64,000 nucleotides of DNA, from assembly GCA_963806645.1 (NCBI GenBank), contig CAWDYQ010000002.1:395141-459140 (forward strand), written 5' to 3'. This DNA is from Candidatus Bathyarchaeota archaeon. Its GTDB lineage: Archaea; Thermoproteota; Bathyarchaeia; Bathyarchaeales; Bathyarchaeaceae. Of this stretch, positions 29,247-43,424 are shown one piece after another; position 1 is the stretch's first letter; each line of letters begins with the position of its first letter. The position numbers and the translations under genes are program-made. Under the pieces are notes generated by a model. The model saw only the letters and a program-made list of their open reading frames with translations. It did not search any database and was not told where the DNA came from.

Positions 29247-31472
29247 ATGCCAAAACGGCGACAAAAATCGGGTTTAAAAGTTCTCAAAGCTGCATCATCC
29301 TCCCTTCGTATGCAACTGCTGATAACTCTTGTAGACAATGGACCACAATCTTACACTGACTTAATGAAGGTGCTTAAACTCAATCCAAGTAGAGATGCGG
29401 GAAGATTCGCTTACCACTTGAAATATCTTTTAAACGCGGATCTAATCGAACCTGACGTAGACAACAAAGAATACCGGCTCACTGATCTCGGTAAAACGAT
29501 GATTAGTTTCACCGAGGATATCCAGCAACAGTTTTTCCAGCGAAAAAAGATTCTCGTTAGAACTTCTCGTCTTGCCATGGAAGAGTTCGACCGAAATAAG
29601 ATTGTTGAAGCTCTAGTTAAGGAGGCAAGCGTTCCTGTAATTCAAGCTCAAAAAATTGCTAGAGAAACCGAAAAACGTCTTCTAGAATTCAAAACAAAAT
29701 ATCTAACTGCTCCTCTAATACGTGAAATGGTAAATGCAATCCTTGTCGAAAAAGGACTAGAAGAATATCGGCACAAACTTACCAGGTTGGGATTACCCGT
29801 TTTCGATGTTAATCAGTTGATAGAATCAACGGGCACCAAATCCCAGAGCGTAGATGCAATTCACAAGGCTGCTGCAGATGCAGTTATGGAAGAATATACC
29901 CTCCTTAATGTTCTACCTAGAGATGTTGCTGACGCGCATCTATCTGGGGGTCTCCACCTCAAGAATCTTGGCACTTGGATTCTTAAGCCAGACCAGTTCA
30001 TGCATGATCTTCGTTTCTTTTTTAAGCACGGGCTAAATCGCGGAGGAATGAAAATTCAAGAACCTTGTTATCTTCCGCCAAAAAGTCTTGAAGCGGCGCT
30101 ACTTACAGCTGCTAATGTCCTGAAAATTGCTGCCACCGAAACCTCTGGAGAACAAACTCTTGACTTCTTTAACATCTTTTTAGCCCCATTTACTAAAGGA
30201 CATTCAGAGGAAAGAATAAAGGAAAACTTATGCTTATTTATATCCAACCTTAATCAACCACTTTCAAACGGAAGTTCTGTGGGCGCTTCCTTAGGAATAG
30301 AATTTGGTGTTCCTAATTTTCTGAAAGAAAAAGAAGCTTTTGGTCCTGAAGGAAAATCTGTTGGTTTCTACGGAGATTTTATTGAGGAAAGCCGACGTCT
30401 CGTTACTTTGTTACTTGAAGTCATGTTTCAGGATGACATGCATAAACCAGTTTTTAATCCTAAGTTGATAATGAAAATACGTCCTGAGGTTCTTAAAGAT
30501 CCTGAATGTTCAAATCTTCTTTTCGAGTCGCATAAACTTGCAGCTGAAACAGGTCTTCCATATTTCGCTAACCTATGTTTGCCGGGACAGAAAGGTGCGA
30601 CTTATGCGTCTACAGGATTCCGATTAGCAGCTGATTGGAAAGAAGATTGGGAACTTGATACGCTTCAGACAGGAAGCATAGATACCGTGATAATAAATCT
30701 GCCAAGAGTCATGTACGAGGCAGGAGGCAAAGAGTCCAGTTTTTTCCGTCTTTTAGATGATCAGTTGGAAATGGGTTTACGGGCTTTGGAGATAAAGTGC
30801 CGCACAATAAAACAACGGGAAAGAGAGCATCTGCTTCCCTTTTTAATGCAGAAAAGTGATGGTGATCCATATTTTAGAATCAAAAACGCGGTTCGACTAG
30901 TTAGCTTCGTTGGTTTAAACGAAACTATCCACGCTTTTTTTGACAAGCCGTTAAAACTTGAGGGAGAGACTCTTGATTTTGCCGAAAAAGTGGTAGCCTA
31001 TCTCTCCGGTGATATTAAAAAATATTCAAAGAGGCCTGAGAACAGAGCGGCTTTAGCTATGGTGCCTGCTGTTGGTGCTGCAAAAAGATTGGCAGAACTT
31101 GATGCTGAAAAGTATGGGTGGTCAACTGTTCGCGCTCAAGGTAGTAAAGAGATGCCCTTTTACACTGACTTGGTTGCATTGCCAATAAGTGCAGATGTTT
31201 CTTGGAAAGAACGGTTAAGAGTTGAGGAAAAATTTCATCGATTGACGTCTGGAGGTCACTTGGCTATTGTACCTCTTTTTGATGAGCCTCAAAACAGTAG
31301 TGATTTGTTATCCATAACTAAGGATATTGCTGGAAATTATGGGATTGGACTATATGCTTTCAATCGGAATCTTGTATATTGTGGGAGTTGCCAAGAGATT
31401 TTCTATGGAAAACAAGTTAGGTGTCCTTCATGTGGGTCCGTTAATATGCTTCAATCGTTCACTCGTGTTTGA
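29247..31472 (+). CDS. wHTH + ATP-cone + NrdD-core protein lacking catalytic elements (putative nucleotide-sensing regulator)
   Basis: 741 aa intact. ArsR-like wHTH at aa 1-90 and an ATP-cone at about aa 100-185. The core aligns with the NrdD at 32045 (DVADAHLSGGLH, FLAPF, GLPYFANL, C-terminal CGSC..CPSCG). It ends ...SFTRV-stop, so it has no RVxGY glycine, and it lacks the Cys sites. Confidence 0.75.
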   Translation: MPKRRQKSGLKVLKAASSSLRMQLLITLVDNGPQSYTDLMKVLKLNPSRDAGRFAYHLKYLLNADLIEPDVDNKEYRLTDLGKTMISFTEDIQQQFFQRKKILVRTSRLAMEEFDRNKIVEALVKEASVPVIQAQKIARETEKRLLEFKTKYLTAPLIREMVNAILVEKGLEEYRHKLTRLGLPVFDVNQLIESTGTKSQSVDAIHKAAADAVMEEYTLLNVLPRDVADAHLSGGLHLKNLGTWILKPDQFMHDLRFFFKHGLNRGGMKIQEPCYLPPKSLEAALLTAANVLKIAATETSGEQTLDFFNIFLAPFTKGHSEERIKENLCLFISNLNQPLSNGSSVGASLGIEFGVPNFLKEKEAFGPEGKSVGFYGDFIEESRRLVTLLLEVMFQDDMHKPVFNPKLIMKIRPEVLKDPECSNLLFESHKLAAETGLPYFANLCLPGQKGATYASTGFRLAADWKEDWELDTLQTGSIDTVIINLPRVMYEAGGKESSFFRLLDDQLEMGLRALEIKCRTIKQREREHLLPFLMQKSDGDPYFRIKNAVRLVSFVGLNETIHAFFDKPLKLEGETLDFAEKVVAYLSGDIKKYSKRPENRAALAMVPAVGAAKRLAELDAEKYGWSTVRAQGSKEMPFYTDLVALPISADVSWKERLRVEEKFHRLTSGGHLAIVPLFDEPQNSSDLLSITKDIAGNYGIGLYAFNRNLVYCGSCQEIFYGKQVRCPSCGSVNMLQSFTRV

Positions 31473-32044: not shown

Positions 32045-34246
32045 ATGACTGAAATGATTCATAAGATTCGACCAATGGTTAGAGGAACTGACGGTTTCAT
32101 TGATCAGTGGAGTCGAGAGAAAATTGTGGAGCAGCTTATTACTGAAACAAAACTGGCTGAAGAATTCTATGAGACTAGAGCAATTAGCAGACAGGAAGCT
32201 GAGGAGATAGCATATGAGGTAGAATTGAAAGTTTTTGATCTCAATCTTAAGTTTATCAGCGGACCGCTTATCCGAGAATTGGTAAACAACGTGCTTCTAT
32301 CCAAGGCTTCACAGAAACCTGAGTTTGCTCTTTATAGAAATATTTTGACTCGAGTAGGTGCACCAGTTTATGATGCCTATAAGATAGACTTGGGTGAAGG
32401 CTACAAAGCAAAAGAAAACGCAAATCTTCAACCTAATCCTGAAACAGCTCACAAAAGAAAAGCTGATTGGGTTTCAGGAGAAGAATATCTGTTGCTGATG
32501 CCTCCGGATATTGCTGACGCTCACCTATCTGGAGACCTTCATATACATGACCTAGAATATTTTGGAACCAGACCATTCTGTCAAGATTGGGATCTCCGTT
32601 ACTTCTTCTATTACGGGTTGATGCCAGATGGACTTGGTACTAGAACAAGCATTGCGGGTCCAGCTAAGCATCCGGAAGTGGCGATTCTTCACACAGCAAA
32701 GATACTTGCTTCTGCGCAGACAAACTTTGCAGGAGGAGAAGGGTTCTATAATTTCCTTATTTTCCTTGCCCCATACTTTAGAGGTTTGAGTTATGAACGT
32801 GTAAGACAGCTTATGCAGATGATGTTTTTCGAGTACACTCAAGCGTATGTGGCTAGGGGAGGTCAATTGGTTTTCAGTAACATTCAGGTTCAGCCTGGAG
32901 TTCCTGAGCTGTGGAGAAACGTTCCCATTGTAATGAATGGACGTATTGGACCTGATGTTTACGGAAACTACGAAGATGAAGTTCGTACAATGTTCCGCGC
33001 CCTCTATGATGTAGCAGGTAAAGGTGATTATTGGGGAAAGCCATTCAACTTTCCGAAACTTGAAAACTCTTTGAGTCCTGAGTTCTTTAAACCTGAATAC
33101 GATGATGTGTGGCTTGACGTTCACAAGGTTGTAGCTAAATTTGGGTTACCTTACTTTGATAACTTGATGCCCGAATACAGGGGTTACGGTAAAGGTGTTT
33201 CATGTTACCAATGCTGTGCTTACTGTTTTGTTGAAACTCCTGAAGATAGTGCAGACTTCTATGATAAGCTGTACTTTAACGATGGTAAGCATTTCACTAT
33301 GGGAAGCTGGCAGGTTACTAGTCTGAATCTTCCACGACTTGCTTACAAAGCCAACGGAAACGATGAGCTGTTGTTTGAGGAAAGCCGTAAGCTGATGGAT
33401 TCGGCTCTTGAAGTGTTTAAAGCCAAGAAGAAGTGGATGAACCTAGCCTTGAAGCATGATCGAATTCCTTTTGCTACTCAACGTCCTTTGGATCCGCGAA
33501 CCAGAGAGAAGGGAACAACTGCTGTAGACTTTGATGCTTTAACGTTTACGATTGGGCTTGTAGGCGGAAATGAGATGGCTCAGTATCATAGTGGTTATCA
33601 ACTGCATGAAAATCCAGAAGCAATCAAGGTATTGATACGGCTGATTTTGGAGATGCAGAAATACAAAAAGGAGTTAGAATCGAGAAGTGGCTACAAGATA
33701 GCTTTAGCGCGTACTCCAGCTGAGTCCACTGCGCAAAGATTTGCGATAGCTGATTTAATAACAGATCGTTATCGAGGGAATGCTGAGAAGCTTGTTAAGG
33801 GAGATGTGGGACAGGCTAAATTTTTGCTTGCTAACCGGAAGAAAGATGTGCCCGTCTATTACAGCAATGGAACTCATGTTGATGTGGGTGCTAAGATGGG
33901 ATTGTTTGATCGGATGAACATTGAGCAGAAATTCTTCCCGCTCTTGAATGGTGGAAATATGTTGCATATCTGGTTGGGTGATGCTAATCCTGATCCTGAA
34001 GCACTTTACAAGTTAACAAAAAAGATCACTACACAAAGCAACATAGGTTACTATGCTTACACCAAAGATTTGACCGTCTGCAGTAACTGTGGAAAAGTGA
34101 CTTCGCCAATGCGTGAACAGTGTCCCAATTGCAACTCAGATTCTATTGAATGGTGGTCAAGAGTAACAGGTTACTATCAGGCAGTTAGCGGATGGAATAA
34201 AGGCAAAAGACAGGAACTTGTCAACAGATACAGAACTGGTATGTAA
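32045..34246 (+). CDS. nrdD: anaerobic ribonucleoside-triphosphate reductase NrdD (class III)
   Basis: ATP-cone N-terminus, PFCQDWDL, Cys-rich GVSCYQCCAYCF, C-terminal CSNCG..CPNC zinc site and the glycyl-radical motif SRVTGYY. Confidence 0.9.
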   Translation: MTEMIHKIRPMVRGTDGFIDQWSREKIVEQLITETKLAEEFYETRAISRQEAEEIAYEVELKVFDLNLKFISGPLIRELVNNVLLSKASQKPEFALYRNILTRVGAPVYDAYKIDLGEGYKAKENANLQPNPETAHKRKADWVSGEEYLLLMPPDIADAHLSGDLHIHDLEYFGTRPFCQDWDLRYFFYYGLMPDGLGTRTSIAGPAKHPEVAILHTAKILASAQTNFAGGEGFYNFLIFLAPYFRGLSYERVRQLMQMMFFEYTQAYVARGGQLVFSNIQVQPGVPELWRNVPIVMNGRIGPDVYGNYEDEVRTMFRALYDVAGKGDYWGKPFNFPKLENSLSPEFFKPEYDDVWLDVHKVVAKFGLPYFDNLMPEYRGYGKGVSCYQCCAYCFVETPEDSADFYDKLYFNDGKHFTMGSWQVTSLNLPRLAYKANGNDELLFEESRKLMDSALEVFKAKKKWMNLALKHDRIPFATQRPLDPRTREKGTTAVDFDALTFTIGLVGGNEMAQYHSGYQLHENPEAIKVLIRLILEMQKYKKELESRSGYKIALARTPAESTAQRFAIADLITDRYRGNAEKLVKGDVGQAKFLLANRKKDVPVYYSNGTHVDVGAKMGLFDRMNIEQKFFPLLNGGNMLHIWLGDANPDPEALYKLTKKITTQSNIGYYAYTKDLTVCSNCGKVTSPMREQCPNCNSDSIEWWSRVTGYYQAVSGWNKGKRQELVNRYRTGM

Positions 34247-34467
34247 CTTAAGCTAATGACTTATCAATTGCTTTAGGCGCCAGTCTGCTTACAAACACAG
34301 ATCTCTGGTTTCCACATATCTTCCTTTTTTTTTAAAACATCCTTTTCCTATGTTGATGAGTTTTGAGTGGAGACAAAAAAATAGCATTAGTCTCGGTAAA
34401 GATTCGATAATATGTAATAAATAAATGTTACAACTTAACTTACAACATCAGCCGGGGCTATATCAGA

Positions 34468-35559
34468 ATGAGTACACGGGAATTAAAGCTTGGTCAAAAT
34501 GAAATTTCCCATTTTCTATCATTCCTTAAAGATCAGCCTCGAGATCTGATTGGCATTTTAACGAAGCCAAAAGCTATATTAAATTTTTTTCTGGTGGAAT
34601 TTCAGCACAGGATCCTTAAATCATCTTACGTTGCTGGGTTCCCATACCAATTGACCATCGAAACCGGAAATATTTGCCCTTTACGATGTTCCCTCTGCCC
34701 AACAGGTCAAGAAAAAGAAGATTTACCCAAAGGTTTCCTTGTTTTTAAGGATTTTAAAAAAATCATTGATGAATTAGGCAATTACCTGTTAATGGTTGAA
34801 TTGTATAATTGGGGTGAACCATTTTTAAATAAAGACTTTTTCCGGATGGTAAAATACCTTAGAGAAAAGAACATCATAGTAACAACAAGCTCAAACTTGA
34901 ATGCCTTTGATGATAATATTTGTAGCGAACTGGTGAATTCGGGTTTAAACTTATTGATGGTTTCTTTAGATGGGGCAAGCCAGGAAACTGTTGAAACATA
35001 TCAACGAGGAAACAACTTTGCGAAGGTTTTCAGCAACATAAAAGAGATCGTGAAAAAAAAGCGATCTTTGAATATTAGGAAACCTTTGATCCAATGGAAA
35101 TTTTTTGTGACAAGATTCACTGAGAAAGAGGTACCTAAAGCAAAGAAGCTGGCTAAAGAAGTGGGAGTTGATCATATAGAGTTTGCAAAACTTCTCTGTG
35201 ATATGAGTCAGAGATTCTTTTTAGATTCCAAGTCCCAATTCGAAAATGTGAAACACTGGTTGCCCAGTAATGATTATTATTCCGCATATTCTAAAAATTT
35301 GAAGAAAAGAAAAAAAGTGCTTAACCGTGATTGCTCGTCGTTGTGGACAAGATCTGTAATGAACTGGGATGGAATGATCTTTCCTTGCTGTAATGTTTAC
35401 GGCTCAGAATGGGCTTTTGGAAATGCTCTTGAAGAAGGTTTTTCTGGAATATGGAATAATTATGCTTACCGGTCTTCAAGAAAAATGGTTGCTAGTGGAA
35501 AACTTGTTCACAAAAAAGGAATTTGTTATATTTGTGTAAAAAATGGAGCCATGCAGTAG
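34468..35559 (+). CDS. radical SAM protein with SPASM/twitch-like C-terminal Cys cluster
   Basis: CPLRCSLC (CxxxCxxC) at about aa 69-76. C-terminal CSS..PCCN..CYIC cysteines. Confidence 0.7.
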   Translation: MSTRELKLGQNEISHFLSFLKDQPRDLIGILTKPKAILNFFLVEFQHRILKSSYVAGFPYQLTIETGNICPLRCSLCPTGQEKEDLPKGFLVFKDFKKIIDELGNYLLMVELYNWGEPFLNKDFFRMVKYLREKNIIVTTSSNLNAFDDNICSELVNSGLNLLMVSLDGASQETVETYQRGNNFAKVFSNIKEIVKKKRSLNIRKPLIQWKFFVTRFTEKEVPKAKKLAKEVGVDHIEFAKLLCDMSQRFFLDSKSQFENVKHWLPSNDYYSAYSKNLKKRKKVLNRDCSSLWTRSVMNWDGMIFPCCNVYGSEWAFGNALEEGFSGIWNNYAYRSSRKMVASGKLVHKKGICYICVKNGAMQ

Positions 35560-35565
35560 GGAGCC

Positions 35566-36627
35566 ATGAATTCTTTGGTTAATATTAATCCGCTTAAATT
35601 GAATGTGCCTATGTTACGGACTTTGAGGCTTTATTCGAAAATAAAGTTGAAGGTTCCATCTCCATTGTTTGTGGCGTGGGATATAACGTACGAGTGCAAC
35701 CTTGACTGTTTCTTCTGTGATCGGCAAACATTTTACCATGATAAACTAAACAAGGATCTAACTTTTGCTCAAGCAAAAACTATTGTTGACAACTTAGTTG
35801 CCGCCGATGTTATGAGTATAGGTATCACTGGAGGAGAGGCTTTACTTAGAAATGATCTCGAAGATATTGTGCAATACGCTGTGGATTCTGGATTAGTTGT
35901 CACTTTAAGTACGAATGGTACATTAATGACAAAATCTAGAGCAAAAAAATTAGCAAATTTGGTCCAATCTATATCAATATCATTGGATGGTTTAGCTGAT
36001 ACCCATGATAAAGTTCGGGGTAATAATGGGGCATATAAAAGAGCGATTCGTGGGCTTAAGATTTTGGCTGAAACAAATCCTCGTTCATGTGCCATAGGTG
36101 TAAATTTTGTTCTAAACAAACACAATTTCCAAGAGTTACGTGAAGTCTTTGAGACTGTAAGAAATATTGGAGCAGATTACTTTTTTATCCAACCTGTTAT
36201 TGGCTCTGACTCTTGGGCGATCCCTCATGCTGCAGTTGACGATTCAGTAAAACAAATTTTAGAGATGAAATCACAACATAGCAACTATCTATCTCAGTCT
36301 TACTATTTCCTAAATCACATATCAGACTACATTAATGGAAAAGTTCCAAAGCTTTGTGACGCGGGCACATTATATTTAGCAATAAACAATGAAGGAAAAC
36401 TGTTTTTGTGTCCCGGTCTTCTTCGAACAGAGGAGAACTACGTCGGTTCTCTGCTTGAAAATTCTATGGTTGCACTGTTGAAAAGCAAGAGGATGAAAAG
36501 GCTTAAAGAAACTGTGGTTCCGAAATGTAATCCTTGTTTGATGAACTGCACAACAGAATATTCTTTGCTTGCTAAGGCACCATTAAAAACGATCTTGAGT
36601 AAATATAGCAGTTTTAGGTTGCAATAG
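35566..36627 (+). CDS. radical SAM protein with SPASM/twitch-like C-terminal Cys cluster
   Basis: CNLDCFFC near the N-terminus, GGEALL. C-terminal CDAG..LCPG..KCNPCLMNC. Confidence 0.7.
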   Translation: MNSLVNINPLKLNVPMLRTLRLYSKIKLKVPSPLFVAWDITYECNLDCFFCDRQTFYHDKLNKDLTFAQAKTIVDNLVAADVMSIGITGGEALLRNDLEDIVQYAVDSGLVVTLSTNGTLMTKSRAKKLANLVQSISISLDGLADTHDKVRGNNGAYKRAIRGLKILAETNPRSCAIGVNFVLNKHNFQELREVFETVRNIGADYFFIQPVIGSDSWAIPHAAVDDSVKQILEMKSQHSNYLSQSYYFLNHISDYINGKVPKLCDAGTLYLAINNEGKLFLCPGLLRTEENYVGSLLENSMVALLKSKRMKRLKETVVPKCNPCLMNCTTEYSLLAKAPLKTILSKYSSFRLQ

Positions 36628-36679
36628 AAGAAAGCAGATACACAGGGTTATATTAAAGCGTCACTAAAAAAAAGATGTC

Positions 36680-37762
36680 GTGAGCATAGTGGTTGAAACT
36701 GATACTTCAATAAACAGTGATTGGTTCCCGGACAGGAAAAATTCACTAAAAAGATCAGTTCCACTTTTGCTTATTGGATTGCTGATTTTCGTTGCCTATC
36801 TGTATTTCTTCGTTGACATACCTGAAATGCTCATAATTATTCAGCAAATTGATGTTTTCTATTATTTACTGGCGACTGTAGTTGTATTGTTGAATATGTT
36901 GGCTTATTCACTGACTTGGCAATTTCTTTTGCGACCTCTTTCGATTAAGGTTTCATTTATAAAAACTATGCTAATCACGTGGGTTGGAGCCTTTGTTGAG
37001 TTCTTTGTTCCTTCTGAGTCAATCGGTGAAGATGTTTCCAAAAGTTATTTTATGATAAAAGAGTCAGGTGAAAACGCGGGTAAGGTTGTTGCTTCGGTTC
37101 TAGGACAACGAATCATGTCTATGCTGGTGACTTTGATTATTCTGATTGTTTGCACTTTTTCATTGTTTACTTTTCAAATCGAAATTCCAGCAGCTGTTTC
37201 ATTTTTGATAGCTTTAATATCAGTTGGCACTGCTATTCCGTTGATTTTTATTCTTCTTTTATGTAAGAAAGAGCAGTTGAGCCATAGATTAATCGATTTG
37301 TTGATACGTTTTGGTGTTTTCATTTCTAGGGGTCGTTTAAATCTTGAAAGCCTAAGATCTAAGGCGAAAAATTCTTTGGAGAGTTTTCATCAATCAGTAA
37401 ATATCTTAGGTGAGAATCCGAGAAGTTTGGTTCTGCCAATGTTTTTTGCTTTGTTAAGTTATTTCCTCAGCGTGCTTGTATCTTACTTTGTTTTTGTTTC
37501 TCTTGGTTATTATGTGAGCTTTGTTATGTTAACAATTGTATATTCTCTTAGTCGCAGTCTTCAAAGCGTTCCTACCATGCTTCCTGGCGAAGTTGGATTT
37601 ATCGAGATTGTAATGACCAGCCTTTACATTGCGTTATTAGGGCCACAAGCTGCCGTAGTTAGTGCTGCGGCAACCGTTCTGACACGGGTTTTATGGGTTT
37701 GGTTTAGACTTCCGTTAGGTTTTATTGCACTCCAGTGGATTCTACGTAGAGGTTTATTGTAA
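36680..37762 (+). CDS. polytopic membrane protein, UPF0104/LPG-synthase-TM (flippase-like) type
   Basis: 360 aa with about 8 hydrophobic segments. Family assignment rests on general resemblance only. Confidence 0.45.
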   Translation: MSIVVETDTSINSDWFPDRKNSLKRSVPLLLIGLLIFVAYLYFFVDIPEMLIIIQQIDVFYYLLATVVVLLNMLAYSLTWQFLLRPLSIKVSFIKTMLITWVGAFVEFFVPSESIGEDVSKSYFMIKESGENAGKVVASVLGQRIMSMLVTLIILIVCTFSLFTFQIEIPAAVSFLIALISVGTAIPLIFILLLCKKEQLSHRLIDLLIRFGVFISRGRLNLESLRSKAKNSLESFHQSVNILGENPRSLVLPMFFALLSYFLSVLVSYFVFVSLGYYVSFVMLTIVYSLSRSLQSVPTMLPGEVGFIEIVMTSLYIALLGPQAAVVSAAATVLTRVLWVWFRLPLGFIALQWILRRGLL

Positions 37763-37884
37763 AATTTTTCAAATCTCTTAATGTAATTTAGAATAATTAC
37801 TAAATGTGGCTTTTTTCAGTTCTTGAATAGTAAATTTAAAATAATGGTTGCAGGAATCAATGCGAAGAGTTCTCTGAATTCTGT

Positions 37885-38970
37885 TTGGAGTGTCAAAAAA
37901 AGAAAATGGCGAAACCTCGAAGCAATGGAGCCTGTAAGCCAACTCCTGGTTTGTCTGATATACGACCCGACGGTTGGAGTGAGAATCGTGAACGTCAACT
38001 GAAACTTAAAAGGCAGTCATGGCAGGTTATGGTTGGCAATACAATATTCCTTGAAGCAAGGAACTTAGCACCTATTCTTGGGTGCGAAAGGGTTTATCTA
38101 AAGTTTGAGGGTAGTAATCCTACTGGAACCCAGAAAGATCGTATCGCTATGGTGCTTGCCGATCAGGCGGTTACTTCAGGATTGGAAGGAATTTCAACTG
38201 CAACGTGTGGAAACTTTGGAGTGGCGATTGCATACGCTGCTCGGCATTATGATTTAGGTGCTAATATCTATATTCCCAAAAAGTATGAGGTTCCAAAAGA
38301 TCGGTTAAAACGTATGGAGAATTTTGGAGCAAAGGTGCATTTTGTGGATGGTTATTATGAGGATGCAGTAGCCTATTCTAGTCAGCAGGCAATAGATTGC
38401 AACTGGTATGATGCTAATCCTGGAGTAAATGAAGTTCCTGAATTGTCTCTAGCTGCATATGGAGAAATCGCGTTTGAGATTTATCGCGACTTAAGGCGGG
38501 TTCCTAACTATATTTTTTGTCCTGTTGGAAATGGGACATCTCTAGCGGGTATCTATGCAGGTTTTAAAAAACTCTACCTTTCAGGAAAGACTATGACTGT
38601 TCCGAAGATGGTTGCTACCAGCACACGCCGAGGCAATCCTGTTATTAAAGCCTTTAAAGAAAACAAGCGAACAATAGTGGATCTAGCTCCAGAAGAAATC
38701 AAAGAAAGCAAAGTCAATGAGCCTTTAACCAATTGGCATTCATTTGATGGACAAATTGCCTTAGACGCAATTTATGAATCAGGAGGTTTCGGAGAATATG
38801 CCTCAGACACAAAAATGATGGAATTCTCGAAACTGGTTCGTTCAGAAGAGGGTTTAAGTGTTCTTCCAGCAGCCGCAAGTACACTAGCTGTAATGCAAAC
38901 GCTTGGCAGAGAAGGTTTCATAGTTAAAGGGACATTTGTGGCGATACTAACGGGCAGAGACTTCGATTAA
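37885..38970 (+). CDS. PLP-dependent fold-type II enzyme (threonine synthase/cysteine synthase-like); start uncertain
   Basis: KFEGSNPTGTQKDRIA (PLP-lysine motif) and GNGTSLAG glycine loop. The start may be at MVGNT (about 38029). Confidence 0.65.
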   Translation: MECQKKKMAKPRSNGACKPTPGLSDIRPDGWSENRERQLKLKRQSWQVMVGNTIFLEARNLAPILGCERVYLKFEGSNPTGTQKDRIAMVLADQAVTSGLEGISTATCGNFGVAIAYAARHYDLGANIYIPKKYEVPKDRLKRMENFGAKVHFVDGYYEDAVAYSSQQAIDCNWYDANPGVNEVPELSLAAYGEIAFEIYRDLRRVPNYIFCPVGNGTSLAGIYAGFKKLYLSGKTMTVPKMVATSTRRGNPVIKAFKENKRTIVDLAPEEIKESKVNEPLTNWHSFDGQIALDAIYESGGFGEYASDTKMMEFSKLVRSEEGLSVLPAAASTLAVMQTLGREGFIVKGTFVAILTGRDFD

Positions 38971-38998
38971 ATTTCCCTAAAGCGCCCTGAATTCTGTT

Positions 38999-39535
38999 CT
39001 ATAGTATGCGTTTCATTACGATGTCTCCTTTTCCAGCAGCAGATATTGTCTTAAATCCGTGTTGTGCATAGAACTGTTGTAGTGGAATTCCTTTTTCGTT
39101 CTTTAATTCAGTGTCTAAAACTATTGAGTAGTATTTTTTTGTTTGTGCCCAGCGAATAAGAAAGTTGATGACAATATTTCCTATACCTTTTCCTTTGGGT
39201 TTGACTGCGAATGTGTCGAGATAGAATGATTTTTTCGATTCATCTGGAATTGAGTAGCCGAAAACTATGATTTGGGGTTTGCCATCCATTGTGAGAAACC
39301 ATAAAACAAGTTCTGATTTTATAAGTGCTTTTTTTAATTCTTCAAACGTGTACTGTAATTCGCGCCTGAAACCTGTGTCTTCTATTTTGTGAAACCAGGA
39401 AAAGTAATGTTTGTTAAGTTCGTTTGGAAAAACTAGTTCCAATTTCCCCTCATAATTATTAGCCAGTTCATCTATAAGCAGCTGCCAAAACGGATTACCT
39501 TTCTCTAGTTGTAATATCGGTATTGTTTCTTTCAC
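38999..39535 (-). CDS. GNAT-family N-acetyltransferase
   Basis: 178 aa. Motif A VKPKGKGIGNIVINFLI and C-terminal FYAQHGF. Confidence 0.7.
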   Translation of the reverse strand: MKETIPILQLEKGNPFWQLLIDELANNYEGKLELVFPNELNKHYFSWFHKIEDTGFRRELQYTFEELKKALIKSELVLWFLTMDGKPQIIVFGYSIPDESKKSFYLDTFAVKPKGKGIGNIVINFLIRWAQTKKYYSIVLDTELKNEKGIPLQQFYAQHGFKTISAAGKGDIVMKRIL

Positions 39536-39584
39536 AGTTTCTATATTCCACCGATATTGTCATATTTGGTTTCTGTTTTTGGGT

Positions 39585-40577
39585 CTATAGTTTTAAACCA
39601 TAACGGTTACATGCAGATTCAAGAAGTCTGCCTACCAGCATGTCATAGGTGTATCCTGATTTCATTGCCATGTAAGGATAAAATGACAGATCGTTTTCTT
39701 TGGTATCGAAGTCCATTCCAGGCAGTGGATTAATTTCCAAGAAAAATAGTTCTTCTTGGCTGTTCATGCGAAAGTCGATTCTAGCAAAATCTTTGACATC
39801 CAACGCATACCAAATGTTACGTGATAACTCTTCAAGTGTTTTTTTTAGTTTTTCTGGTATTTGTGCAGGGCAAATATAGTGTTCCAACGAGTCTAGGACA
39901 GTTTTTGCTCGTTGCCCAAACACATCTCCTACCTCAGGAAACTTGGAAAAATCTATTTCCAGAATTGCAAGAATCTCTGGATCTTTGTTTGGTTGTCCAA
40001 GTAGTCCGGTGCTGAATTCTCTGCCTTCAATAAATTGTTCAACTAGTATTGGTTGCTTGTATTCTGTTATCATTTGTTTTAGTTTTGTGTGTAGTTGTGG
40101 TTTGTTATATACCAAATTTTCTTCGGTGATTCCGATTGAAGAGCCTTCTTCGTTTGGTTTCAGCAGATAAGGAAAGCCTTTGTTTATTCTTTCTGCTTCT
40201 TGAAGGTTTTCACATACGTAAAATTTTGGGGTAGATATTTTGTGATAAAGTAGAGTCTTTTTTGTCCATGCTTTGTTTAGGCAAATTGCAGTCGTTAGCA
40301 CGTTAGAGCCGATGTAAGGGATATTAAGCATTTCAAGTATGGCGGGTACGTGCGATTCGCGGCTGTTACCCCTTAGTCCCTCTGCTCTGTTGAAAACGAG
40401 ATCTGGTTTTGCTTTTTTGATGTTTTCGGCAAAGTTTTCGTCAGCTTCAACGAATATGTATTCATGTTTGGTGTTTTCGATTCCGTGTTTTATAAGCTCA
40501 ATTGTGTGTGGGGGGTCATATTCTACTTCGAATTCGGTTTCAGTTTGGCGTGTATTCAGAACTAATGCTATCCGCAT
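39585..40577 (-). CDS. ATP-grasp ligase, D-alanine--D-alanine ligase-like
   Basis: 330 aa. Ddl-like layout (MRIALV.., GSNVLTTAICLNKAWTK, LKPNEEGSSIGI, EINPLPG). Confidence 0.7.
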   Translation of the reverse strand: MRIALVLNTRQTETEFEVEYDPPHTIELIKHGIENTKHEYIFVEADENFAENIKKAKPDLVFNRAEGLRGNSRESHVPAILEMLNIPYIGSNVLTTAICLNKAWTKKTLLYHKISTPKFYVCENLQEAERINKGFPYLLKPNEEGSSIGITEENLVYNKPQLHTKLKQMITEYKQPILVEQFIEGREFSTGLLGQPNKDPEILAILEIDFSKFPEVGDVFGQRAKTVLDSLEHYICPAQIPEKLKKTLEELSRNIWYALDVKDFARIDFRMNSQEELFFLEINPLPGMDFDTKENDLSFYPYMAMKSGYTYDMLVGRLLESACNRYGLKL

Positions 40578-40630
40578 TTTGGTTTTCCCACCATTAGAAT
40601 TATTCTTGTGTAATTAAAATTAGCTCTTTG

Positions 40631-42007
40631 TTAAAAATTGAATGATGTCAATTCTTCTTTATAGATTGAGTTTATTGCGTTTCTCAACTCTTTAGGGACC
40701 GATATTGAACTATGTAAAGTGCAGAATGTTTTATACAGTTCATCTTCTCTTTCTTTTGCTTCCTGATACAGTGGGCTTGTCTTAAATTCTTCAATAAGGC
40801 TTCCATTATTCTCTCTTTTAGATGCTAGATAGAATGCGAAAAGTTGCTCGTCCCTGCCTACCTTAGTGTGTGCATATGTCATTGTAATCGATTTGCCTCC
40901 AAACAATGTAAAAAATCTTTTACATTCTGGCTCTAGCATGTTTTTTTGTATTCCAATCTTTTGAGGGTCGATTCCGCTTCCAACGCACATTAAATACATT
41001 TTAGCGCAGATTGAGCAATCATGACACCAATGATAGTTTTGTCCTGCCTCAGTTTCTGTAAAGCAGCTCATCTGATACTTTGCAATCTCTGGATATCTAT
41101 GTGCTAAAATGTATTGGATCATCATATCCATAAGAGGCTCAATAAGACTGCCCGTGTTAACCGAACGTCCTGAGAAGGTTTGCGTAATTTGGTCAATATG
41201 TACAGTCCAGCGGTGAGATTGGTCATAGCACGGATGAACTGTCCATCTGCCATCAGAGTCCATGTAGCTTGAGGCAGCGGTTTGTTCGTTGCCAAATAGC
41301 AGATATTTCGATTTGAGTGAATATGCGAATGGGATTAATTCCAGTGCATACTCGGTTGTTTGCAGTCCCCAACCCAATTCTGTGAATGGTACTCCGAGAT
41401 GTGGGTAGTCACGAAACTTTCCAGTTTCGTGTTTCAAGGTGTTCAACTCTTTACCGAACTCGTTTTTGAAGCGTTTTGCTAGTTCGGTTTTGTGTTTTTG
41501 TTCGTATGTCATGCTCTGTTCTATAACGTAGACCATTTCTGGTTCTAGACCGATTTCTTCTGCCACTGCGTAAGTGAGGAGGCTGTCCTTTCCGAAGCTT
41601 GTTCCAACAAGGGCTCTGGATGGTGAATCTACAGGTTGATTGGAGGGATATACAATGTTTGAATCTAGGAATTGATATTCTGTATTGAAGAACTTTCGAA
41701 CAGTTTCATCTGTACATGTTCCATCAACTTCTGTGCATGAAGGTATGTCTTTGAGGAAGTTTTGTATGAAGTATGGTTCTAGTAATGGGAGTCCTGAATG
41801 GTAAATTATTTTTAATGAATCGAATATTAGTGGCAAATGCATTGTGGTAGCAAGTGCAAGGTTGTCTTTGAGTGCTTTTTGTGTGTCTTTAGGTGTTGCT
41901 TCCCAAACATGGGTTGGGTAATTTATTGGATACGGTATGTCTCGAAAACTGATTTCCACTCCAGTATTAGTAACCTTTGAATATATTTGCAGTGGATTCA
42001 TACCCAA
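40631..42007 (-). CDS. hypothetical enzyme with degenerate PP-loop (SFGKDS) and CxxCxxC motif
   Basis: 458 aa. GTSFGKDSLL at aa 135-144 resembles the SGGKDS ATP-pyrophosphatase loop. HWCHDCSICAKMY lies later in the sequence. Confidence 0.4.
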   Translation of the reverse strand: MGMNPLQIYSKVTNTGVEISFRDIPYPINYPTHVWEATPKDTQKALKDNLALATTMHLPLIFDSLKIIYHSGLPLLEPYFIQNFLKDIPSCTEVDGTCTDETVRKFFNTEYQFLDSNIVYPSNQPVDSPSRALVGTSFGKDSLLTYAVAEEIGLEPEMVYVIEQSMTYEQKHKTELAKRFKNEFGKELNTLKHETGKFRDYPHLGVPFTELGWGLQTTEYALELIPFAYSLKSKYLLFGNEQTAASSYMDSDGRWTVHPCYDQSHRWTVHIDQITQTFSGRSVNTGSLIEPLMDMMIQYILAHRYPEIAKYQMSCFTETEAGQNYHWCHDCSICAKMYLMCVGSGIDPQKIGIQKNMLEPECKRFFTLFGGKSITMTYAHTKVGRDEQLFAFYLASKRENNGSLIEEFKTSPLYQEAKEREDELYKTFCTLHSSISVPKELRNAINSIYKEELTSFNF

Positions 42008-42050
42008 AGAATCTGCAAGACTCCATTTAATAACAGTGCATATTGCCTGA

Positions 42051-42173
42051 TTATTCTTCTTCTACTAACTGCATTGGTTGGCCGCAGCAAACAAGAATTC
42101 CATTCCCGGATGCAACAACTTCCACCACGTTTCCGCAGATTTTACAGGCATACATTTCTCCTTCTTGTGTCAT
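42051..42173 (-). CDS. desulforedoxin-like small Fe(Cys)4 protein (not in ORF track, 40 aa)
   Basis: Translation MTQEGEMYACKICGNVVEVVASGNGILVCCGQPMQLVEEE. Has the CxxC...CC desulforedoxin/Dfx-N signature, with a GGAGGTGAAGGG SD just upstream of the ATG. Confidence 0.75.
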   Translation of the reverse strand: MTQEGEMYACKICGNVVEVVASGNGILVCCGQPMQLVEEE

Positions 42174-42209
42174 CCCTTCACCTCCTAAGACTTTGCACGC
42201 TTTGTAATA

Positions 42210-43424
42210 CTAGAGTTCTGTATTTGGAAACTCTATTCTTCGTAAATACTTCTTAGCATACTCGGGTTCATGCGCAAGTTCCTGGCTTCTTAACAATTGC
42301 CTCTCAAGTCGACCCAATGCTGTTTGAAACGTTGCCTCAACGCCATAGCCTTCGCCGGAGCTGAAAAATGAGCCTCTTCTTGTCCTAAACTGTAGTCGAC
42401 AATGAATCAACTGTTCTCCCTTGTAGTTTGTTCCATGTGTTTTCATATACACGAAAAGTGTTCCCGATTCGAGTATCTTTTGGTATTTTTTTGAGAAAAC
42501 TTCGAAATCGCCCATTATGTAGCTACGTTGAATGTTGTCTATTTCTACGCCTTTAACTGAAAACTCAACTTTTATTTGCTGTTTTGGTGTTTCCATTTCG
42601 GCTAGTGGTTCAAGAAGGTCTCTTTTTGTCAGAATTCCTGTGGGTCTTCCTTTAGTGACAATAACCAAAGAAGAAATGCTGTATTTTTGCATGTTTTTTA
42701 CAGCATCTTTTAACGTGTTTTCTGGCAAAACGGTGATGACTGGTTTTGTCATTATTCCTTTTGCTGAAATGCTTAGAACTGGAACTTTCTCTCCTGCAAT
42801 ATCTCCTACCTTTTGGCGATGTCTTGGTTGAAAAATACCTGTGATTATGTCTTTTATGCTTACAATACCTACTAGAGTGCCGTCTTTAACTATTGGCACA
42901 TGAGAAATGTTGTGTTCCCTGAAGAGGCTTAGGACAGCTCCTACTGACTCGTTTTCTTCAATAAGGAACGGTTTCTTTGTCATCATTTCCTCAACTTTGT
43001 TGTTGCCCCATTTCCCAACAACTGCGCCCTGAATAAGGGCATCATCCGTAACGATTCCCACTAATTTCTCTCCGTTGAAAACTGGGAGCTGGCTAATTCC
43101 GCTGGTTATCATTAGTCTCGCTACTTCACCAAGAGATTCCTCAAGGGATACAGTGGGCGCTGAACGCATTAAACTCTCCACTTTAGTTGTAGCTGGATTA
43201 TACCTTGACCTGACTATCCATCTGTGGGCAATTACTCCCGCGTATTTTCCTTTACTGTCTAAGACAACCAACACTGGCGTTGATTCTTCGTTAAGAATAG
43301 AGAGACATGCAGAAAGCAGGTCGTCTTTGCTGATGCTCCTAAATTTGGTTGATAAAACGTCTTTTACGATACTTGAAACCATACTCACTTCTCCAAATAA
43401 CTCATTTCTATAAAAGCAATTCAA
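42210..43424 (-). CDS. 4xCBS (two Bateman modules) protein with HPF/RaiA-like C-terminal domain
   Basis: Four CBS repeats at aa 15-280. The C-terminal part IKVEFSVKGVEID..YI..F..L...SGEGYGVEATFQTALGRLERQLLR follows the HPF/YfiA pattern. The start may be MVSS (43382). Confidence 0.6.
   Translation of the reverse strand: MNCFYRNELFGEVSMVSSIVKDVLSTKFRSISKDDLLSACLSILNEESTPVLVVLDSKGKYAGVIAHRWIVRSRYNPATTKVESLMRSAPTVSLEESLGEVARLMITSGISQLPVFNGEKLVGIVTDDALIQGAVVGKWGNNKVEEMMTKKPFLIEENESVGAVLSLFREHNISHVPIVKDGTLVGIVSIKDIITGIFQPRHRQKVGDIAGEKVPVLSISAKGIMTKPVITVLPENTLKDAVKNMQKYSISSLVIVTKGRPTGILTKRDLLEPLAEMETPKQQIKVEFSVKGVEIDNIQRSYIMGDFEVFSKKYQKILESGTLFVYMKTHGTNYKGEQLIHCRLQFRTRRGSFFSSGEGYGVEATFQTALGRLERQLLRSQELAHEPEYAKKYLRRIEFPNTEL

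Follow-up and report, generated by a model that had tools for sequence, protein, structure and literature searches.

In a stretch of 64,000 nucleotides from the genome of a Candidatus Bathyarchaeota archaeon (contig CAWDYQ010000002.1, positions 395,141 to 459,140; hereafter the window), we analysed the genes between positions 34468 and 42007. It turned out that two groups of genes stand side by side in this interval. Module A (34468–37762) is a three-gene operon encoding two radical S-adenosylmethionine (SAM) proteins, called rSAM-1 and rSAM-2, and a membrane protein of the PF03706 family. Module B (37885–42007) is the gene of a pyridoxal-phosphate (PLP) enzyme convergent on the genes of a GNAT acetyltransferase, a Ddl-like ATP-grasp ligase and a MurL-like PP-loop protein. 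We are highly confident of the gene content, the domain families, the synteny and the split into two modules. The substrates, the chemistry and the transcript boundaries of both modules are what we infer. The chances are, in our estimate, about even that the interval holds two independent uncharacterised modules placed next to each other in a variable slot, around which the housekeeping backbone is conserved. All of the domain families are known. The three-gene and four-gene architectures are without a characterised equivalent, and full-text literature searches returned no prior description of either module.

The comparison set consisted of about 25 related loci (numbered L007, L008 and so on). 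The loci were gathered by exact-protein look-ups, by a genome scan with the rSAM-1 alignment and by a metagenome scan with rSAM-2, and twelve window proteins were mapped onto all of them by tblastn. Fetched through rSAM queries, the sample is biased toward loci that contain rSAM genes. The three-gene core (rSAM-1, rSAM-2, PF03706) is colinear in about 20 independent contigs, which indicates that this arrangement is more than chance. Wherever rSAM-2 is at least 68% identical and both sides are visible, the three genes are contiguous (the window, L007, L008, L010, L012, L014, L015, L096–L104, L106 and L108), and the membrane gene always lies directly 3' of rSAM-2. The order of the trio is kept in L008 in wholly different flanks. 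L116 carries a diverged copy, with identities of 55/33/50% and unrelated flanks. An original prediction, made from the letters of the window, had joined four genes, with the PLP gene as the last, into one operon. The four plus-strand open reading frames (ORFs) are present where it had placed them. The gaps between them are 6, 52 and 122 nt (6, 52 and about 120 nt in the prediction), the last one being 143 nt if the PLP gene starts at the ATG at 37906, and the predicted stop-to-stop distance of 28 nt to the convergent gene is also correct. The operon itself holds for the rSAM-1, rSAM-2 and membrane genes, which are conserved, co-directional and tightly spaced. It does not hold for the PLP gene, whose position is variable and which goes together with another set of genes. 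The conservation of the neighbourhood, suggested as a check of the prediction, is likewise seen for the trio in these approximately 20 contigs, and the PLP gene is not tied to it.

In no more than 3 of about 20 loci (the window, L007 and L012) does the PLP gene lie 3' of the membrane gene. In L014, L096, L098, L099 and L101 it is found upstream of rSAM-1, between the trio and a gene of the anaerobic ribonucleotide reductase NrdD (NrdD-b). In L010, L015, L097, L102–L106 and L110 the trio is present, the PLP gene is missing from the locus and the backbone directly follows the membrane gene. In every locus where the PLP gene is seen, it stands stop to stop with the GNAT, ATP-grasp and 458-aa genes. 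This cassette, in which the 458-aa, ATP-grasp and GNAT genes run in this order toward the PLP gene, is intact in Thorarchaeota (L092) and Promethearchaeota (L093). The identities to the window proteins there are 57–59% for the PLP enzyme and 64–66% for both the ATP-grasp and the 458-aa protein, and no radical SAM genes are found near the cassette in these two Asgard genomes. Thus, the variable position or absence of the PLP gene at trio loci and its constant company in the cassette, including that of Asgard archaea, place it outside the trio operon. The same comparison divides the predicted second enzyme operon at 38999–43424, which is a composite: its GNAT, ATP-grasp and 458-aa genes go with the PLP gene, and its gene of a CBS-domain protein and a 40-aa gene go with the backbone.

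It could be assumed that all four genes, perhaps together with the convergent ones, form one cluster with one product, as the original prediction supposed. For example, an amino-acid moiety made by the PLP, ATP-grasp, GNAT and PP-loop proteins would be attached to a lipid or glycan that is modified by the rSAM proteins and flipped by the PF03706 protein, as in the case of MprF and lysyl-phosphatidylglycerol (Lys-PG). The modules do adjoin in the window, L007 and L012, with the PLP block on the 3' side, and in L014, L096, L098, L099 and L101, with this block on the 5' side. In addition, an aminoacyl-lipid system, that of MprF, has PF03706 as its flippase domain (10.1101/2025.07.29.667474). A single cluster is at odds with at least nine contigs that carry the trio without the cassette at the locus, with L008 and L116, where the trio is elsewhere in the genome, and with the two Asgard genomes, where the cassette stands without any rSAM gene nearby. 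The order and orientation of the modules relative to each other also vary, and terminator-like and promoter-like signals are found between the membrane gene and the PLP gene. We consider one cluster improbable. One observation counts against the full independence of the modules: in all eight Bathyarchaeia loci showing both, they are adjacent, in either order. This means that a functional link between the two modules is possible.

The slot in which the modules lie is bounded by housekeeping genes. On the upstream side these are the genes of primase, GINS, eIF2-alpha and two NrdD paralogs with a glutaredoxin. After the interval follow the genes of the CBS-domain protein, aspartate carbamoyltransferase (pyrB), PhoU and an ABC transporter. 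The conserved order of the backbone is NrdD-a, glutaredoxin, NrdD-b, then, after the slot, the CBS protein, a desulforedoxin and pyrB. The desulforedoxin-like protein is encoded by an unannotated ORF of 40 aa (42054–42173, minus strand; M..GE.Y.C..CGNVVEV...G.G.LVCCG.PM), which is directly 3' of the CBS gene and is 60–92% identical in about 20 related loci. The CBS gene and the 40-aa gene are part of the NrdD...pyrB backbone and belong to neither module. The GC content is about 39%, and the homologs are named Candidatus Bathyarchaeota or Bathyarchaeia, with archaeon SG8-32-1 among the close relatives. The closest relative is L012 (contig CAVQRL010000018.1, 729 kb), whose trio and cassette proteins are 91–98% identical to those of the window. 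The title of the record calls this metagenome-assembled genome an 'uncultured Actinomycetota bacterium', although its gene content is plainly Bathyarchaeial; this bin is probably mislabelled or contaminated.

The signals between the membrane gene and the PLP gene were read on the basis of archaeal oligo-T terminators and TATA boxes. A run of six T followed by a TATA-like box likely marks the end of the trio transcript and the start of the PLP gene promoter. At the other boundary of the trio, L007, L008, L010, L014 and L015 have in common the sequence AAACGATTATTA...ACCTACAAA.TGAAC, which is placed some 45 nt ahead of the start of rSAM-1, and L008 keeps this promoter-like box and leader despite a different upstream gene. 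The window copy of the box is recognisable but more diverged than the version of the relatives. As support for two modules, the promoter-like and terminator-like signals at the trio boundaries are suggestive only. Between the box and the rSAM-1 start lies a conserved 5' leader of about 25 nt (ACCTACAAA.TGAAC.GG), which has no Rfam match; an Rfam scan of positions 34000–39200 (E ≤ 0.1) detected no riboswitch or noncoding RNA.

Table 1. Features of the two modules in the window and the basis on which each was assigned.
Feature	Position	Strand	Basis
Putative archaeal promoter (AT-rich TATA/BRE-like box) and short 5' leader of the trio	34397..34457	+	Predicted from conservation in relatives
rSAM-1, radical SAM protein with an N-terminal three-helix extension and a BtrN-type twitch domain (module A)	34468..35559	+	363 aa; PF04055, PF13186
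rSAM-2, lineage-restricted radical SAM protein with a five-Cys C-terminal domain (module A)	35566..36627	+	353 aa; PF04055, 73.9 bits
Polytopic membrane protein of the MprF flippase-domain/AglD/HpnL family (module A)	36680..37762	+	360 aa; PF03706 (LPG_synthase_TM), 103 bits, residues 31–347
T6 run (37811–37816), then TATA-like AAATTTAAAATAAT (37832–37845)	37811..37845	+	Read from the sequence
PLP enzyme, threonine-synthase-like, PRK06381 family (module B)	37885..38970	+	361 aa; PF00291, 185 bits
GNAT acetyltransferase (module B)	38999..39535	-	PF00583, 27.8 bits
Ddl-like ATP-grasp ligase (module B)	39585..40577	-	PF07478, 118 bits
458-aa QueC-fold PP-loop protein, remote MurL relative (module B)	40631..42007	-	No Pfam family

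Both rSAM proteins match PF04055 and carry the CxxxCxxC motif and the C-terminal auxiliary cysteines described in the original prediction. In rSAM-1 the motif consists of C70/74/77, and five C-terminal cysteines (C289/307/308/353/356) are invariant; the invariance of all eight was judged over 27 family sequences. In rSAM-2 the motif consists of C44/48/51, with C264/282/321/324/328 as the invariant C-terminal cysteines. The SPASM model PF13186, with a cut-off of 21.5 bits, scores rSAM-1 above it (37.6 bits) and rSAM-2 marginally below (21.4 bits). The seven-cysteine SPASM motif CX9-15GX4C...CX2CX5CX3C...C was found in neither protein, each of which has only five invariant C-terminal cysteines. 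Its front half, C-x12-G-x4-C, and a CxxC are present in the auxiliary regions, and the CX5CX3C part is absent. Since five C-terminal cysteines stand against the seven of canonical SPASM, the auxiliary domains of both proteins would fit a twitch or partial SPASM domain with one auxiliary cluster.

The only sequence match of rSAM-1 in the Protein Data Bank (PDB) was BtrN, 2-deoxy-scyllo-inosamine dehydrogenase of the butirosin pathway (PDB 4M7T/4M7S), with an E-value of 3e-5 in the search with one sequence and of 1.3e-15 in that with the family profile. The profile match spans both the radical SAM core and the twitch domain. Cysteines C289, C307, C353 and C356 of rSAM-1, all four invariant in the 27 members, align with C169, C187, C232 and C235 of BtrN, and their spacings are 18, 46 and 3 versus 18, 45 and 3. 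In the paper on the BtrN structure these four residues are reportedly the ligands of the auxiliary [4Fe-4S] cluster. The two proteins also differ. In the structural alignment they are about 15% identical. rSAM-1 exceeds BtrN in length by about 110 aa, carries a helical extension of 50 residues at its N-terminus and one more invariant cysteine, C308, and has no aminoglycoside pathway context. BtrN is the prototype of radical SAM dehydrogenases with a twitch domain; it has two [4Fe-4S] clusters and acts on the carbinol C-H of a cyclitol (PMC10337720). The AlphaFold2 (AF2) model of rSAM-1 has a predicted local distance difference test (pLDDT) of 91, and its N-terminal extension consists of three helices with no beta strands. 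The modelled fold places rSAM-1 in the SPASM/twitch clade and reveals no substrate class, because Foldseek ranks sugar-acting and peptide-acting relatives alike. An assignment of rSAM-1 by fold was rejected for this reason: the model is confident, yet the Foldseek matches do not discriminate.

rSAM-2 is closest to SkfB (1e-17), BlsE (3e-15) and MoaA among solved structures, and BlsE, the second-best of these relatives, is a sugar-nucleoside decarboxylase. The top NCBIfam matches of rSAM-2 were TIGR03962 MftC (132 bits) and AhbD/NirJ (about 124 bits), and that of rSAM-1 was TIGR04317 (115 bits), a maturase of a tungsten-cofactor oxidoreductase. In the profile searches of all eight genes against Pfam and NCBIfam, which had been proposed with the original prediction, no rSAM match came near any equivalog cut-off, all of them being missed by a wide margin by both proteins. 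The statement of the prediction that the genes could not be assigned to a known pathway thus still stands. The two families differ in breadth. That of rSAM-2 is very small: E ≤ 1e-30 was reached by only 71 of 1.84 billion representatives, only 4 clusters exceeded 220 bits, and the relatives at 36–42% identity stand alone in their genomes. The rSAM-1 family is broad, with relatives at 35–47% identity in anammox and other Planctomycetota, Thermodesulfobacteriota, Omnitrophota, bacteria of the candidate phyla radiation (CPR), and DPANN and other archaea.

Links with two groups of unusual lipids were considered and rejected. Butanetriol-tetraether lipids (BDGTs) are attributed to Bathyarchaeota. 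A link with them is unsupported: a methylase-type architecture (B12 or HemN-like) is lacking in both rSAM proteins, Methanomassiliicoccales are not represented among the few named relatives of rSAM-2, whose family is very small, and no enzyme of BDGT synthesis is named in 10.1101/2025.10.20.683597. The score with the Tes model NF045702 was 23.5 bits versus a cut-off of 450, and PF02310, by which the B12-type enzymes Grs, Gmm and Ted are recognised, was found in neither rSAM protein. Ted, the known Bathyarchaeal lipid radical SAM enzyme, is of the B12 type (10.1101/2025.10.20.683597) and is unrelated to rSAM-1 and rSAM-2. In Scalindua and other anammox bacteria the rSAM-1 family is multi-copy (L019, L020, L049, L053, L066, L077, L079, L081, L083, L084, L088 and L090). 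Downstream of many of the copies lie genes of about 700, 460 and 1150 aa, a context unlike the glycan islands in which the family is found elsewhere, and among the pooled neighbours of all distant loci histidine kinase domains made up 10/111 and sigma-54 response-regulator domains 8/111. A ladderane link was rejected as well: the neighbours of anammox rSAM-1 appear to be histidine kinases, sigma-54 regulators and glycosyltransferases, not genes of fatty-acid synthesis, and the current ladderane candidates are B12-rSAM proteins.

For the third protein of the trio, the eight transmembrane segments of the original prediction are compatible with a crude hydropathy scan, which gives about eight. 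The protein scores 110 bits with the 'flippase-like' model TIGR00374, above the cut-off of 43, and 54.4 bits with the HpnL model TIGR03476, below the cut-off of 195.65. It is a stand-alone PF03706 protein, which ends 13 residues past the domain. The PF03706 domain of MprF is a lipid flippase. The family (IPR022791) includes Lys-PG synthase/flippase and S-layer glycosylation proteins (10.1101/2025.07.29.667474). Unlike MprF and the AglD-type proteins, in the window protein PF03706 spans the whole length, and the C-terminal aminoacyl-PG synthase domain of the former and the GT2 domain of the latter are missing. Since PF03706 is the only domain found, this protein is neither MprF nor AglD.

Our favoured reading, at slightly less than even odds, is that the trio uses radical chemistry to tailor a head group, a sugar or polyol linked to a lipid, and that this tailoring is coupled to a flippase-like protein. 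The role in the envelope or in a lipid head group that the original prediction had put forward is still the best guess, now for the trio. According to this reading, rSAM-1 and rSAM-2 would act one after the other, each abstracting hydrogen from a C-H bond by means of the 5'-deoxyadenosyl radical, and their target would be the head group, sugar or polyol, of a substrate anchored in the membrane. This substrate may be an archaeal lipid of the glycosyl or inositol type or a sugar linked to dolichyl phosphate. As for the chemistry, a carbinol carbon could first be dehydrogenated in the manner of BtrN, and a redox, rearrangement or decarboxylation reaction could follow as the second step. The PF03706 protein would hold the lipid-linked product or translocate it across the membrane.

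In the wider rSAM-1 family the genes lie in a setting of glycan biosynthesis. The 111 co-directional neighbours of distant rSAM-1 homologs included glycosyltransferases of the GT2 (16) and GT1/GT4 (9) families, NDP-sugar epimerases/dehydratases (8), B12-rSAM proteins (8) and methyltransferases (5). A PF03706-type gene was found within 10 kb of 5/73 distant homologs. In a marine archaeon the rSAM-1 homolog is located inside a glycan island of about 20 kb together with a PF03706 gene, a Wzx-like flippase and PMT-type transferases. In L115, where rSAM-1 is 52% identical, the gene is followed by a GT4 glycosyltransferase gene, a small ORF and a PF03706 gene of the opposite orientation. Only this glycan-island context suggests rSAM-1 as a putative dehydrogenase of a secondary alcohol on a sugar or aminocyclitol. 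Radical SAM enzymes that act on lipid head groups have precedents, one of which is HpnJ. Another is calditol synthase Cds, which remodels the head-group sugar of a lipid (PMC13459092). The logic proposed for the trio is that of Cds in Sulfolobus (PMC13459092) and that of hpnH/hpnJ with hpnL, where radical SAM enzymes remodel a sugar-derived membrane-lipid head group. The model scores with the hopanoid system are weak (54 bits for the membrane protein with HpnL and 86 bits for rSAM-2 with HpnH, at cut-offs of 196 and 225). Unlike in these systems, there is no squalene-hopene cyclase or calditol context at the window locus.

Several observations weigh against this reading. No glycosyltransferase or sugar-nucleotide gene is found near the trio in this lineage, and its flanks are housekeeping genes; it is for this reason that the link with glycans or lipids comes from homologs that are only 35–55% identical. 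The top sequence matches of rSAM-2 are maturases of peptides or cofactors, SkfB and MftC. In the Foldseek search with the rSAM-1 model BlsE, SuiB, BtrN, viperin, SkfB, anSME and DesII scored nearly equally. In Ca. Bathyarchaeum tardum rSAM-1 (71% identical) is alone, and this solitary copy indicates that rSAM-1 can act without partners. We know of no stand-alone PF03706 protein with a demonstrated function. HpnL, a member of this family, is encoded beside the radical SAM head-group enzymes in hopanoid loci, and its own function is unknown (10.1101/2025.07.29.667474).

Some of these observations would suit a different function of module A, namely that of making or maturing an enzyme cofactor or a soluble small molecule, with the membrane protein as an exporter or in an unrelated role. 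The top NCBIfam matches (TIGR04317 for rSAM-1, MftC and AhbD/NirJ for rSAM-2) and the lack of glycan genes near the trio agree with this, as do the oxidoreductase genes that adjoin the homologs in B. tardum and L008. These NCBIfam scores are, however, two- to five-fold under the curated cut-offs, and mftA/B, heme or siroheme genes or a tungsten enzyme were not found among the partners. Both the conserved partner, a membrane protein of a lipid family, and the glycan-biosynthesis context of the wider rSAM-1 family speak against this function, and a soluble product appears doubtful.

A ribosomally synthesized and post-translationally modified peptide (RiPP) was considered as another substrate. 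In such a system the rSAM pair would cross-link a ribosomal peptide and the membrane protein would export it. Radical SAM proteins with SPASM/twitch domains are typical RiPP maturases, and SkfB, SuiB and CteB are among the structural or sequence relatives of the two proteins. Comparison of seven loci showed no small ORF conserved around the trio; the matches obtained were the NrdD C-terminus or came from near-identical genomes only. L008 has only 129 nt upstream of rSAM-1. A PqqD/RRE domain (PF05402-type) was detected in neither rSAM protein at a Pfam E ≤ 0.01, and the N-terminal extension of rSAM-1 is purely helical. No protease or ABC exporter gene is present within or next to the trio, and PF03706 is not a known peptide exporter. 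A RiPP system is thus a very unlikely explanation of the trio.

The proximity of NrdD raised the question of whether one of the rSAM proteins is the activase (the equivalent of NrdG) of the class III ribonucleotide reductase encoded upstream. In many loci NrdD-b, which carries the glycyl-radical motif, is the next gene upstream. Neither another CxxxCxxC protein nor a canonical NrdG is encoded in the 64-kb window, and rSAM-2 matches Fer4_12 (PF13353) with 27 bits. Both rSAM proteins are, on the other hand, about 350 aa long and have auxiliary-cluster domains, which NrdG and PflA are not known to have. No activase was found among their PDB sequence matches or top 25 NCBIfam matches. In L008 and L116 the trio is present without NrdD, and in L014, L096 and L098 the PLP cassette lies between the trio and NrdD. 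On architecture and synteny we rejected this hypothesis, which has hardly any probability left.

The first NrdD paralog (29247–31472, plus strand) carries a winged-helix domain (DUF7347) at its N-terminus, and also an ATP-cone. The protein terminates with '...SFTRV*' at the point where NrdD-b runs on into the glycyl-radical motif 'SRVTGYY', and it is without the CYQCCAYC cysteine cluster of NrdD-b. In L010, L014, L015, L102 and L106 it is kept at 79–85% identity. To judge from these motifs, this paralog looks catalytically dead, and its role may be that of a transcription regulator that senses nucleotides and arose from a class III ribonucleotide reductase.

Module B begins with the PLP enzyme. 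Its probable start is the ATG at 37906, which is also the start picked by gene callers in the relative L007. The original prediction had called this protein a threonine-synthase-like PLP enzyme, and both the Pfam match and the motif NPTGTQKDR at residue 78 confirm it. With the NF004996 'threonine synthase' model the enzyme scores 378 bits, above the cut-off of 266; with TIGR00260 (thrC) it stays below (87 versus 167 bits), as it does with four other ThrC models. The closest PDB structure is the Aquifex threonine synthase 2ZSJ (E = 2e-34). With ThrC the enzyme shares the PALP fold and the PLP-lysine motif NPTGTQK. Unlike ThrC, its gene is never beside thr genes here and is always convergent on the GNAT, ATP-grasp and MurL-like genes, in two archaeal phyla. 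The PLP enzymes of the Asgard cassettes in L092 and L093 belong to the same PRK06381 family and show the same pattern of models passed and failed. Since these Asgard partners score identically, PRK06381 appears to be the family of the PLP enzyme of this cassette, and, as far as can be told, 'threonine synthase' is a putative label of NF004996/PRK06381.

The remaining genes of the cassette were compared in the same way. The GNAT gene occupies the same position in L007, L012, L014, L096, L098, L092 and L093. The ATP-grasp protein is below all Ddl/Van cut-offs, the best model being NF002378 (177.8 versus 243 bits). The 458-aa protein is 60–70% identical between Bathyarchaeia and Thor-, Prometh-, Odin-, Hermod- and Hodarchaeota, a level of conservation that suggests either a strong constraint or lateral transfer of the whole cassette. 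Its invariant motifs are the PP-loop S137-x-G-K-D-S142 and the cysteines C315/C328/C331/C334. The AF2 model (pLDDT 86.7) has a central QueC-like PP-loop domain, and the top Foldseek matches were QueC (3BL5), Cap9 and TtuA. The only consistent NCBIfam match was the MurL model NF041275, which was matched by 23/34 members of the family (residues 122–341, best E = 2e-6). The window protein itself scores 16 bits with this model, of which the cut-off is 700, and the homology with MurL is for this reason only remote.

MurL is an ATP-dependent C-terminal epimerase that is paired with the ligase MurD2 and is thought to act via carboxylate adenylation (PMC8788868). As in the MurD2/MurL peptidoglycan route of Xanthomonas, module B combines an amide-forming ATP-dependent ligase with a protein of the MurL length class, and the QueC-type PP-loop fold of the latter fits the adenylation proposed for MurL. 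In contrast to this route, the ligase of module B is of the Ddl type and not of the Mur-ligase type, its partners are a GNAT and a PLP enzyme, and its hosts are archaea with no murein genes in view; no Mur ligase genes are present in the two Asgard cassette loci. Module B looks like a MurD2/MurL-style combination of a ligase and an adenylating enzyme that makes a modified amino acid or dipeptide. The PLP enzyme would make or supply an amino acid by beta/gamma-replacement chemistry, and the ATP-grasp enzyme would ligate it. The QueC-fold enzyme would then adenylate the carboxylate, either for epimerisation, as proposed for MurL, or for amidation, and the GNAT would N-acetylate the product.

The main concrete result is a corrected operon structure with two well-delimited experimental targets. 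Since neither module is yet tied to a product, the value lies in such a target, not in a discovery. Archaeal expression hosts have already been used for Bathyarchaeal lipid genes (10.1101/2025.10.20.683597). The 'threonine synthase' label of PRK06381 hides a cassette that is conserved across Bathyarchaeia and Asgard archaea, with identities of 57–70% between these lineages. That it contains MurL-like and Ddl-like members is a hint of chemistry on D-amino acids or dipeptides, and no murein genes are visible in the loci examined. It is conceivable, with a low probability, that the cassette is an archaeal ligase-epimerase pathway that builds an N-acetylated amino-acid conjugate, possibly with a D-residue, and that the Bathyarchaeal trio processes and exports the lipid- or glycan-bound acceptor. 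If this is true, an envelope lipid or glycan decorated with peptides, of a kind not recognised before, would exist in two major uncultured archaeal groups. In anoxic sediments Bathyarchaeia belong to the most abundant archaea, and knowledge of their lipids and envelopes is for the most part inferred. For them the trio is a concrete candidate for a lineage-specific modification of a lipid or glycan head group.

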